This document shows, piece after piece, positions 4,208 through 10,841 of a DNA stretch of 12,885 bases. The stretch lies in the IMG/VR virus record IMGVR_UViG_2657245081_000004, one strand, 5' to 3'. How positions within the stretch are numbered: the first letter of the stretch is position 1; each line of letters begins with the position of its first letter. The translations under genes and the position numbers were made by a program. The notes beneath the pieces are model-generated. The model did not search any database. It saw only the letters and a program-made list of their open reading frames with translations, and was not told the DNA's origin. The stretch comes from a virus (Duplodnaviria > Heunggongvirae > Uroviricota > Caudoviricetes).

Positions 4208-4299
4208 TTGTTTTAACCTCATGACAGATTTAAGGATGAACAAATCCCTGCCATTGCTGGCATATAAGAATGAAACCGGATATTTATTACGGAACTGTT

Positions 4300-4845: not shown

Positions 4846-4903
4846 AAAAAGGGCGGCAGAGCAGTCACGGAGTAAAACTGATACCGCCAAACGTCACCAG
4901 AAA
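4846..4903 (-). ncRNA. dicF: DicF small RNA (ftsZ-targeting) with its intrinsic terminator
   Basis: Minus-strand sequence UUUCUGGUGACGUUUGGCGGUAUCAGUUUUACUCCGUGACUGCUCUGCCGCCCUUUUU matches remembered DicF; ends in a GGCGG/CCGCC stem plus U5. Confidence 0.85.
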
Positions 4904-5777: not shown

Positions 5778-5956
5778 GCTGACCTCATTTCCCCTTAACG
5801 CCGGGGTAGCGGAACAAAAACCTGCTGCATAGTTATTAAAGTTGAACCCTGCCGTCATGTTCTTACGCCTCGGGCTGGCTACTTAACCCCTGACCACTGC
5901 CTGGTAACTCGAAGTATTGCCCTGCATTCTGTAGGATGGGGTGAGGGAATGAATGA

Positions 5957-5985
5957 AGTTTAGAAAGACGAACTTTCCAGGTCAA
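5957..5985 (-). promoter_or_regulatory. Candidate leftward early promoter (pL-like) for the ydfA-dicB operon
   Basis: On the minus strand TTGACC (-35), 17-nt spacer, TAAACT (-10); lies next to the OL-like palindrome. Confidence 0.4.
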
Positions 5986-5986
5986 T

Positions 5987-6003
5987 GTTTTTTTATCAAA
6001 ACA
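5987..6003. promoter_or_regulatory. Operator-like palindrome TGTTTT-N5-AAAACA (putative OL site for the CI-like repressor)
   Basis: Inverted repeat seen directly; the same half-sites recur at 6708-6725 next to the repressor start. Confidence 0.45.
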
Positions 6004-6069
6004 TTTTAAGCAGGCAGCTGTTAAGCCATCACCACGATGGCATACAGTTAATCAAATAGATGAGGTTGG

Positions 6070-6708
6070 TTAAATATCTTGTTGAATTTTAAAGCATACG
6101 CCCAATATGCAAGATAGATCATCCAGCATAATTGAAGGGTAGCGAGGATTCGTGGGGACTAAAAGAATATCCGGCCCTTCTATCTCCAGTTTACGAATGA
6201 CAGGTGTTGTGGTCCCTTTGGGTAAGGCAAGGACAATATTTCCTGGTTGTACGGTTCGATCGGGATCAACAAAAACTGTTGAACCATTTGGGATGGAAAC
6301 TCCCCCACCAGATGTTGACATACTGTCACTCTCTAGAACAACTGCAAAGGTATTGACCGGGATTTCTCCGACAAGCTGCACACAAGAGGTTATTGAGGAA
6401 TTTTTCATATAATCACTCCAGCTTGCTGCCTGCTGAAGTGATAGTAGCGGAACCGTTTTTATCGGCGGTAAAGATAGATCAAGCGAATCACCTGTATTTA
6501 ACTCTCCTCCATTAAGAAGCCAATTTTCGTTTACTTTCAATATTTTTGCCAGTGAACTTATGTAACGCGAGGACGGCGCTCCTCCACCGTTCATCCATTG
6601 ACTTACGGAGCCTTTTGATGCGCCAGTGCCATTGACAAGGTCTTTGCCTTTCAGGTTTAGCGCATGCATACGTTGGGTTATGCGTTCAGATATAGTTTGC
6701 TTGCTCAT
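6070..6708 (-). CDS. Prophage repressor, lambda CI / LexA-like (N-terminal HTH, C-terminal S24 peptidase domain)
   Basis: N-terminus ...RMHALNLKGKDLVNGTGASKGSVSQWMNGGG is HTH-like; C-terminal half has S24-type Ser (DSMS) and Lys (VIRKLE) context; divergent from the cro-like gene. Confidence 0.85.
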   Translation of the reverse strand: MSKQTISERITQRMHALNLKGKDLVNGTGASKGSVSQWMNGGGAPSSRYISSLAKILKVNENWLLNGGELNTGDSLDLSLPPIKTVPLLSLQQAASWSDYMKNSSITSCVQLVGEIPVNTFAVVLESDSMSTSGGGVSIPNGSTVFVDPDRTVQPGNIVLALPKGTTTPVIRKLEIEGPDILLVPTNPRYPSIMLDDLSCILGVCFKIQQDI

Positions 6709-6725
6709 GTTTTGATTTTAAAACA
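6708..6725. promoter_or_regulatory. Operator-like palindrome TGTTTT-N6-AAAACA overlapping the repressor start codon (putative OR site); degenerate copies follow to about 6780
   Basis: Inverted repeat seen directly in the cI-cro intergenic region; further GTTTTG-containing partial repeats at 6731-6746 and 6763-6780. Confidence 0.45.
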
Positions 6726-6799
6726 CAGATGGTTTTGTTTCTTGACTTTCTTTGGTTTTGATTATTAAACTTTTGACGTTCAGTTTTATGGAGCGACTC

Positions 6800-7030
6800 A
6801 TGAAAAAATCAGAAGTATTAGGCTATTTTGGCGGAGTTGTTAAAACAGCCGCAGCTCTAGGAACGTCAAAAACCACAGTCAGCATGTGGGGGGAAGAGGT
6901 TCCGTGGAAATGGGCGTTGCTAATTCAGGCAGTCACTGCCGGGGCGCTCAAATATGAGTTACACATACCGACGGTTGTCATTCCCGGTTCTGATCATAAT
7001 CCGCCTTCTAACCAAGGGGGGGATTCATGA
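6800..7030 (+). CDS. Cro-like regulator (YdaS/DicC family)
   Basis: MKKSEVLGYFGGVVKTAAALGTSKTTVSMWG... resembles DicC/YdaS N-termini from memory; GGAG 5 nt upstream of ATG 6800; stop overlaps the next gene start (ATGA). Confidence 0.75.
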   Translation: MKKSEVLGYFGGVVKTAAALGTSKTTVSMWGEEVPWKWALLIQAVTAGALKYELHIPTVVIPGSDHNPPSNQGGDS

Positions 7031-7452
7031 AAATCAAGCATGAACACATCCGCATGGCGATGAATGCCTGGGCGCATCCGGACGGCGAAAAAGTACCGGC
7101 TGCGAAAATTACCAAAGCGTATTTCGAGCTGGGAATGACGTTCCCGGAACTGTATGACGACAGCCATCCGGAAGCCCTGGCTCGCAATACCCAGAAAATT
7201 TTCCGCTGGGTAGAGAAAGACACCCCTGATGCAGTTGAAAAAATTCAGGCGTTGTTACCAGCGATCGAAAAGGCAATGCCACCTTTGCTGGTGGCCAGAA
7301 TGCGCAGCCACAGTTCAGCTTATTTTCGGGAGCTGGTGGAGACGCGGGAGCGACTGGTGAGAGACGCTGATGATTTTGTCGCAGTGGCAATCGCCGGTTT
7401 CAATCAGATGAACCGTGGTGGCCCGGCAGGAAATGCTGTGGCAGTACATTGA
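7027..7452 (+). CDS. CII-like regulator, YdaT family
   Basis: 141-aa protein starting MKIKHEHI..., recalled as YdaT-like; coupled to the cro-like gene at the CII position. Confidence 0.65.
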   Translation: MKIKHEHIRMAMNAWAHPDGEKVPAAKITKAYFELGMTFPELYDDSHPEALARNTQKIFRWVEKDTPDAVEKIQALLPAIEKAMPPLLVARMRSHSSAYFRELVETRERLVRDADDFVAVAIAGFNQMNRGGPAGNAVAVH

Positions 7453-10399: not shown

Positions 10400-10579
10400 A
10401 TGAAAAACGCATTGCAGTTTTTGTTTGTTGCGTTCTGGTTGTTCGTATCATGTATGCCCATCATCTTCACAGCAAGGTATATGGAAAAAGTTGATGTTTT
10501 GATATTAATATTTGGATATATAAATGCCCTTTTTTTAGGGGTGTTCATGGCGGTCATGTGCATTGAATACTGGCGGTAA
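10400..10579 (+). CDS. Small hydrophobic protein (59 aa) with two predicted transmembrane helices, in an AT-rich island
   Basis: MKNALQFLFVAFWLFVSCMPIIFTARYMEKVDVLILIFGYINALFLGVFMAVMCIEYWR; GGAGG 4 nt upstream of ATG 10400; surrounding DNA (about 10260-10620) is visibly AT-rich. Confidence 0.55.
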   Translation: MKNALQFLFVAFWLFVSCMPIIFTARYMEKVDVLILIFGYINALFLGVFMAVMCIEYWR

Positions 10580-10662: not shown

Positions 10663-10734
10663 GACTGCGGGTGCTTGAGGCTATCTGTCTCAGGCATGAA
10701 CACCAAAAGGCAGATAGAGAAAAGCCCCAGTTAA

Positions 10735-10800
10735 CATTACGCGTCCTGCAAGACGCTTAACATTAATCTGAGGCCATATCTATGCGACACATAGAGATTA
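10735..10800 (-). ncRNA. Putative Sok-like antisense RNA region (approximate bounds)
   Basis: Minus-strand promoter-like TTGACC (complement of 10821-10826), 16-nt spacer, GCTAAT, reading across the mok-like start; position matches hok/sok architecture. Ends not determinable. Confidence 0.35.
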
Positions 10801-10841
10801 GCCTCTTACGGACCGAAAGGTCAAGGAGAAGCAGGCTATGA
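10782..10841 (+). CDS. Short leader ORF (19 aa) ending in ATGA overlap with the hok start; mok-like coupling frame
   Basis: ATG 10782 with GAGG 8 nt upstream; stop TGA overlaps the hok ATG. Confidence 0.35.
   Translation: MRHIEISLLRTERSRRSRL

Follow-up and report, generated by a model that had tools for sequence, protein, structure and literature searches.

The gene of a cI-type repressor is flanked by two matching palindromes in a 12,885-nucleotide stretch of viral DNA (IMG/VR record IMGVR_UViG_2657245081_000004), hereafter the window, which is the early region of an Escherichia coli lambdoid (Qin/Rac-like) prophage. The palindromes are very probably the OR3 and OL2 members of a set of five right (OR) and left (OL) operator elements, which would form part of a lambdoid immunity switch of the P22 style. 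The CI-type repressor, and very probably Cro as well, are predicted to bind as dimers to partly symmetric 18-base-pair (bp) sites, for which sequence comparisons suggest the core (T/A)GTT(T/C)-N8-AAAC(A/T). An earlier note on this DNA had read both palindromes as operators; their location within the immunity module, their conservation on a diverged background and their recurrence around distant homologues make that reading very probable.

Two palindromes within an immunity module

Both palindromes are 18 bp long and take the form TGTTTT-N6-AAAACA, with 6-bp arms around a 6-bp spacer. The left-hand one, site L (5986-6003), reads TGTTTT-TTTATC-AAAACA (TGTTTTTTTATCAAAACA; minus strand TGTTTTGATAAAAAAACA), and its arms can be extended to 8 bp (AATGTTTT/AAAACATT). 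The right-hand one, site R (6708-6725), reads TGTTTT-GATTTT-AAAACA (TGTTTTGATTTTAAAACA). That the two share half-sites, as the earlier note had claimed, is confirmed, and the two exact copies are not reproduced by shuffling (0.00 expected; 0/200 dinucleotide shuffles of the window). They are, furthermore, the sole pair with a common half-site among the window's perfect 6-N(0-12)-6 palindromes. When only the two AT-rich intergenic stretches were shuffled, palindromes with the same half-site appeared in both in 0/200,000 trials. The differing spacers which the note had ascribed to them are an error: both spacers are 6 bp, the supposed N5 having arisen from a one-base miscount in the T run of site L, which starts at 5986 and not at 5987. 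A search of the window for TGTTTT-N5-AAAACA, with up to one mismatch allowed, returned nothing, and the oddity of unequal spacers is therefore absent.

Both positional statements of the note hold. Site R overlaps the repressor start codon by exactly one base, T6708 being the complement of the A of the ATG. Site L adjoins a candidate leftward promoter (pL), TTGACC-17-TAAACT, and directly abuts its -35 hexamer.

When the window is compared with the heteroimmune phage Tritos, both sites fall within one discrete segment. The window is 96.6% identical to Tritos up to 5943 and 99.5% identical from 7022, while the middle cannot be aligned; the left-hand homology break at 5943 recurs in around 3400 E. 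coli genomes. On this comparison the immunity module is 5944-7021, bounded by the two breaks. Inside it lie both palindromes, pL, the rightward promoter (pR), cI and cro, whereas ydaT lies outside, which ties the sites to CI and Cro and not to host factors or YdaT. The module is present at ≥95% identity in 1042/5426 complete E. coli genomes, UTI89 and O157:H7 among them.

The candidate operator set

The earlier note had placed one operator on each side of the repressor gene. Both sites stand, but the picture was incomplete, since the operators most likely comprise three OR and two OL elements, disposed about the two candidate promoters as follows.

5957-5985, minus strand: candidate pL from a promoter scan; TTGACC (5985-5980), 17-nucleotide spacer, TAAACT (5962-5957)
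5957-5974, minus strand: OL1 candidate, AGTTCGTCTTTCTAAACT; begins 5 nucleotides past the pL -35, with the pL -10 TAAACT at its end
5986-6003, no strand assigned: site L, candidate OL2; abuts the pL -35
6708-6725, no strand assigned: site R, candidate OR3; one-base overlap with the cI ATG
6731-6748, plus strand: OR2-like element, GGTTTTGTTTCTTGACTT; good left half-site, 3' part forming the pR -35 TTGACT (6742-6747)
6742-6771, plus strand: candidate pR from a promoter scan, driving cro; TTGACT-18-TAAACT, conserved in relatives
6754-6771, plus strand: OR1-like element, GGTTTTGATTATTAAACT; over the pR spacer and -10 TAAACT (6766-6771)

Candidate pL is positioned to drive a leftward ydfA-ydfC-dicF-dicB operon. 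Together the elements cover the promoters, with OR1 on the pR -10, OR2 on the pR -35 and OL1 on the pL -10. OR3, OR2 and OR1 follow one another at a spacing of 23 bp. OR1 is identical to OR3 at 14/18 positions and has the exact 9-mer GTTTTGATT in common with it, both elements belonging to a 25-nucleotide direct repeat whose copies are 46 bp apart. The note had proposed a motif search for more copies. A broadened pattern, WGTTY-N8-AAACW, finds exactly three matches in the 12.9-kb window, namely the two palindromes and OL1. Relaxed cores are not enriched window-wide: TGTTTT-N6-AAAACA with up to two mismatches occurs 3 times against 1.24 expected. Extra relaxed matches at 4209-4226 and 10495-10512 are within expectation and appear to be due to chance. 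The former, TGTTTTAACCTCATGACA, is operator-like and lies close to the start of the exonuclease VIII gene; the latter, TGTTTTGATATTAATATT, also operator-like, lies around 160 bp upstream of a sok RNA.

Conservation of the set was traced in L002-L005 and L088, E. coli relatives whose repressors are 84% identical to that of the window and whose cI third codon positions are 58-64% identical. Against this diverged background conservation is selective:

5986-6003: site L, 17-18/18 conserved
6709-6725: non-coding part of site R, 16-17/17 conserved
6731-6771: block containing OR2 and OR1, 40-41/41 conserved
6731-6748: OR2, 18/18 conserved
6754-6771: OR1, 17-18/18 conserved; L002 reads TGTTTT there
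5963-5979: pL spacer, 59-71%
6004-6009: 33-67%
6726-6730: 5-bp linker, 20-40%
6772-6779: 50-62%

Within the palindromes, changes in these relatives are found solely at position 6 of the cI-proximal half, where site R has C for T and site L has A for T, and this confinement defines the core as TGTTT-N8-AAACA. An alignment of 85 loci, consisting of the window, around 80 loci which are 98-100% identical and the few 84% relatives, shows the sites to be almost free of polymorphisms, which fall in the linkers and promoter spacers. Three of the 85 loci, all from IMG/VR, are short of one T in the run of site L and so carry a true TGTTTT-N5-AAAACA, which may represent natural variation in the operator or an error in sequencing the homopolymer.

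The same arrangement recurs around distant homologues. A scan of species-representative genomes returned nothing with a single protein query and one locus, a prophage of Symbiopectobacterium purcellii (L090), with an alignment query. Two further loci, L091 and L167, are IMG/VR contigs. The repressors of the three are 44-47% identical to that of the window and have the recognition helix ASKG(S/A)VSQW(M/I)NG in common with it; the Cro proteins of the window and L090 are 48% identical. The core TGTTT-N8-AAACA, derived from E. coli sequences alone, has four matches with up to one mismatch in the 3-kb locus of L090, where 0.32 are expected (0/200 shuffles), and all four flank cI. With the same tolerance it occurs four times in L091 and twice in L167, in the same positions as in L090, while the broadened WGTTY-N8-AAACW yields exactly four sites in each of the three loci.

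In all three distant loci, the stretch that separates cI from cro holds three 18-bp elements. Of these, the first shares exactly one base with the cI ATG; in the second, TTGAT(C) serves as the pR -35; and the third, the OR1 equivalent, matches the core with up to one mismatch and ends in the pR -10 TAAACT. On the left, 4-6 bp separate one OL site from the pL -35 TTGACA downstream of it, and a second OL site begins 5 nucleotides past this hexamer and ends in a TAAACT -10. The strong sites TGTTTTGATATATAAACT (L090), TGTTTTGTTATCTAAACT (L091) and TGTTCACAATAATAAACT (L167) lie where the window has its OL1 candidate. The E. coli relatives and all three distant loci retain the pL hexamers, and the columns which are invariant across lineages are the GTT/AAAC half-site cores and the promoter hexamers.

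A number of observations weigh against this five-element assignment. The perfect palindromes miss the -10 of both pR and pL, and alone they would not repress pR. OL1 is the weakest assignment because its centre varies within E. coli, and it fits the core in the broadened form only. The right half of OR2 is poor, and it is uncertain whether this element is an operator or is conserved merely as the pR -35. OL1 and OL2 are spaced at 29 to 35 bp depending on the lineage, so that cooperativity between them, if any, cannot rely on one fixed helical phase. In the window the core TGTTT-N8-AAACA, allowed up to two mismatches, is not enriched (9 matches against 9.7 expected). The broadened pattern was partly derived from the very loci in which it was then counted, and for this reason the TGTTT-N8-AAACA count in L090 is given more weight. 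Finally, a literature search found no published sequences for these sites, the repressor being encountered under generic names only.

Proposed regulatory circuit and alternative readings

The genes within the module and at its edge are as follows.

6070-6708, minus strand: cI-type repressor, 212 amino acids, HTH_3 and Peptidase_S24 domains (Pfam, PDB)
6800-7030, plus strand: cro-type gene, 76 amino acids, P22_Cro / DicC / YdaS-like (Pfam PF14549, 9e-16)
7027-7452, plus strand: ydaT-like gene, encoding a YdaT-like protein in the cII position

The repressor matches PF00717 (S24) at 4e-13 and PF01381 (HTH_3) at 4e-4, the latter with 20.8 bits against 23 and so under Pfam's cut-off. Its matches in the PDB are lambda CI (3bdn, 7.5e-10) and the N-terminal domains of the 434 repressor and P22 C2. 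Helix 1 requires the start at 6708, which all lineages share. Outside the three phage records which carry this module, the nearest phage repressors are at most 31% identical, and no relatives between 95% and 31% identity were found among sequenced phages. A homologue search with the N-terminal domain alone returned just 4 near-identical fragments. In several E. coli genomes (L088 from ES5, L089 from SA53-3, and cluster members P0020-P0022) the repressor gene is frameshifted or truncated; in such genomes a 112-amino-acid C-terminal fragment is annotated, the helix-turn-helix part is a pseudogene and the operator sequences are intact.

We infer as follows which protein occupies which site, how the affinities rank and what happens at each promoter. 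Occupation of OR1 and OR2 by CI would block pR and keep cro off. At OL2, with or without OL1, CI would occlude the pL -35 and the upstream A-tract, so that the ydfA-dicF-dicB operon is off. Occupation of OR3, by CI at high level as negative autoregulation or by Cro, would turn cI off; by analogy with phage ES18, in which the OR region likewise adjoins the repressor start codon, it is plausible that CI regulates its own gene through OR3. The perfect symmetry of OR3 and OL2 probably reflects the fact that neither has to accommodate a promoter hexamer (-35 or -10) belonging to pR or pL.

It is possible, though we hold it only tentatively, that the symmetric sites are mainly targets of Cro, which at OR3 would shut off cI and at the other site damp pL, while CI would act mainly at OR1, OR2 and OL1. 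OR3 and the site upstream of the pL -35 are the low-affinity CI positions in lambda, whose Cro prefers OR3. The cro gene lies in the same immunity module and is conserved alongside the sites in the distant lineages, and the recognition-helix motifs look alike by eye (SKTTVSMW in Cro, SKGSVSQW in CI). However, BLASTP did not align the N-terminal domain of CI with Cro, and the symmetry may merely reflect freedom from -10 and -35 constraints at both positions. Since lambdoid CI and Cro share one operator set, a predominant role for Cro would refine the operator explanation and not replace it.

The remaining alternatives fare far worse. That the palindromes are elements of promoter architecture, akin to the A/T tracts of UP elements, is very improbable. 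Site L lies at about -36 to -53 of pL, and the transcribed strand reads AAAAAAACA beside the -35, which we take to resemble a proximal UP subsite. Yet site R, with identical half-sites, lies at -53 to -70 of pR, which is too far upstream; the same motif is also found over the -10 regions, in OL1 and OR1; and across lineages it is the G and C of TGTTT/AAACA which are invariant, while the A/T-rich centres vary.

Nor is it credible, save at the very margin, that the sites serve another factor, be it IHF (WATCAA), FNR (TTGAT), CRP or the CII analogue YdaT (TTGATT-N6-AATCAA). TTGAT/ATCAA is present in both sites, and a sequence resembling the YdaT box, which is described as a TTGATT/ATGATT-N6-AATCAA inverted repeat (PMC11879457), is found at 7020-7037. 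YdaT of Rac is known to bind such 6-N6-6 boxes, and it has further sites between racR and ydaS (PMC11879457). In the window, by contrast, each palindrome has one TTGAT(T) half only. It is that very T which is mutated in the E. coli relatives (site R reads TCGAT, site L TAGAT), although each site is otherwise kept, and OR3 of the distant lineages has no TTGAT. The half-sites of CRP are spaced 2 bp more closely, and ydaT, besides lying outside the module, is present in Tritos too, whose intergenic region is unrelated. As TTGAT/ATCAA is not conserved in relatives, the readings based on IHF, FNR, CRP and YdaT are rejected. Chance AT-rich palindromes, RNA hairpins or terminators are negligible as explanations: the intergenic regions are indeed AT-rich and site L lies downstream of the cI stop, but local shuffling did not reproduce the pair, conservation and recurrence across lineages argue against chance, and the hairpins which the palindromes could form are weak (-3.3 to -5.7 kcal/mol) and without a U-tract.

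Within the operator explanation, the control of cI itself deserves separate consideration.

6715-6720, minus strand: possible cI -10 hexamer TAAAAT, at -12 to -7 from the A of the cI ATG, within the OR3 spacer

No Shine-Dalgarno sequence is found upstream of the window's cI. At the position of TAAAAT, L090 and L091 have AATAAT, while L167 is without such a hexamer and has an AGGTG Shine-Dalgarno sequence instead. A leaderless, OR3-controlled cI promoter is a plausible hypothesis for the window but would not be general. Were cI leaderless, the centre of OR2 would lie at about -31.5 of its promoter, compared with the activating -42 of lambda, a geometry which does not support positive autoregulation of the lambda type.

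A further question concerns induction. In the S24 domain of the repressor the DSM and (R/K)KL motifs, corresponding to the catalytic Ser and Lys, are kept in the alignment to lambda CI. No Ala-Gly or Cys-Gly scissile bond is found in residues 60-118, and at residues ~88-96 (LLSLQQAASWS) the repressor has QAAS where lambda CI has QAG, with its Ala111-Gly112 bond; the distant relatives have QAEK, QAVT and QAAI there. The repressor may accordingly not be cleavable by RecA in the classical manner. Since an S24 domain lacking the Ala-Gly bond is common to all four lineages, induction might bypass RecA-stimulated cleavage and could use an antirepressor; a Rem-like antirepressor function is known for Qin. 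It is unlikely that these features amount to an immunity type wired unlike those of lambda and P22, with symmetric and possibly strongest operators at OR3 and OL2, a cI -10 in the OR3 spacer and induction without classical RecA-stimulated cleavage. If such wiring were real, embedding the cI -10 in the OR3 spacer would provide tight negative autoregulation.

Relation to known switches and significance

Among characterised systems, a number of parallels can be drawn with the P22-type phage ES18 (AY736146). In the immC region of ES18, three annotated operators, OR1-3, which are 18 bp long and partly symmetric, lie between a divergent repressor and cro, and the OR region adjoins the c2 start codon. 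ES18 also has TTGACC as its pL -35, and its repressor, likewise a helix-turn-helix and S24 protein, is 27.5% identical to that of the window over 96% of the length. Cro of the window belongs to the Pfam P22_Cro family, as in the P22 type. Despite this, the half-sites are unrelated (ATTTAAG-type in ES18, TGTTT in the window), only two OL sites are evident in the window, and the pR -35 lies at the 5' end of OR2 in ES18 and at its 3' end in the window. Furthermore, the window repressor differs from the P22 type in lacking Ala-Gly at the expected autocleavage position.

With lambda the window shares divergent cI and cro genes, several related operators over pR and pL, an OR3-type site beside cI, a possible leaderless cI transcript and a homologous S24 C-terminal domain (3bdn, E = 7.5e-10). 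Lambda differs in having 17-bp sites and three OL sites, and its best sites are OR1 and OL1, whereas in the window it is OR3 and OL2 which are perfectly symmetric. The Stx phage 933W has three OR sites and no OL3, and its repressor does not bind cooperatively at OR1-OR2 (PMC5977221). It thus provides a precedent for a two-site OL and has an E. coli host range, but its repressor and operator sequences are unrelated to those of the window.

In its gene neighbourhood the window matches the dicA-dicC-dicBp locus of Qin and the racR-ydaS-ydaT locus of Rac in K-12. In common with these it has a leftward ydfA-ydfC-dicF-dicB operon under a pL equivalent (dicBp), a Cro of the DicC/YdaS type, YdaT in the cII position with a YdaT box at the start codon, and a leader (5860-5943) which is common to thousands of such prophages. 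The operator motif is different, and the segment 5944-7021 has no counterpart in those loci. DicA has 135 amino acids and no cleavage domain (PMC10448788), unlike the window repressor, which is a full-length helix-turn-helix and S24 protein.

Phages 204576 and vB_EcoS-640R1 are 98-99.8% identical to the window. To the left of cI lie ydfA/DUF1391, ydfC, the DicF RNA and dicB, and two RNA genes of the window score above the Rfam gathering threshold:

4851-4902, minus strand: DicF small RNA, in the pL operon (Rfam, 76.7 bits)
10669-10840, plus strand: sok antitoxin RNA (Rfam, 106.7 bits)

The leader at 5860-5943, downstream of pL, is 92-97% identical in around 3400 E. coli genomes with other immunity types, and parts of it (GTAGCCAGCCCGAGGC...GAACATGA) reappear in loci as distant as L090 and L091. 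Either the 5' end of a longer YdfA/YdaF frame (ATG at 5858, a 78-amino-acid open reading frame) or a conserved RNA element may account for it. Just past the cI stop, 6010-6055 is 87-89% conserved in the 84% relatives and holds a GCCATC...GATGGC hairpin with arms at 6022-6030 and 6036-6044, of which the stem is kept while the loop (6031-6035) varies; its predicted fold (-12.6 kcal/mol, z = -1.5) is unexceptional and without a U-tract. The YdaT-box-like sequence at 7020-7037, GGGATTCATGAAAATCAA, spans the ATG (7027) with which the ydaT-like gene starts, begins exactly at the right-hand edge of the immunity module and is a close match to the Rac YdaT box, ATGATTCATGAAAATCAA. In Rac this box activates a reverse promoter for the repressor (PMC11879457). 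Around 190 bp from the window's copy, inside cro and directed at cI, lies a promoter-like TTAACA-18-AATACT (6843-6814, minus strand), with the geometry of the YdaT-activated PracR4/pRE-type promoter of Rac.

Taken as a whole, the module represents a specificity which is uncharacterised yet very common, and the kind of system to which it belongs is thoroughly known. Once the spacer anomaly is removed, the finding holds nothing to surprise a specialist, the missing Ala-Gly being the one possible, and peripheral, exception, and the general picture of lambdoid switches is left unchanged. A defined motif and site map nevertheless offer a means of predicting homoimmune prophages and of designing reporters and decoys, and an aid to interpreting the derepression of dicBF-type operons in pathogenic strains.

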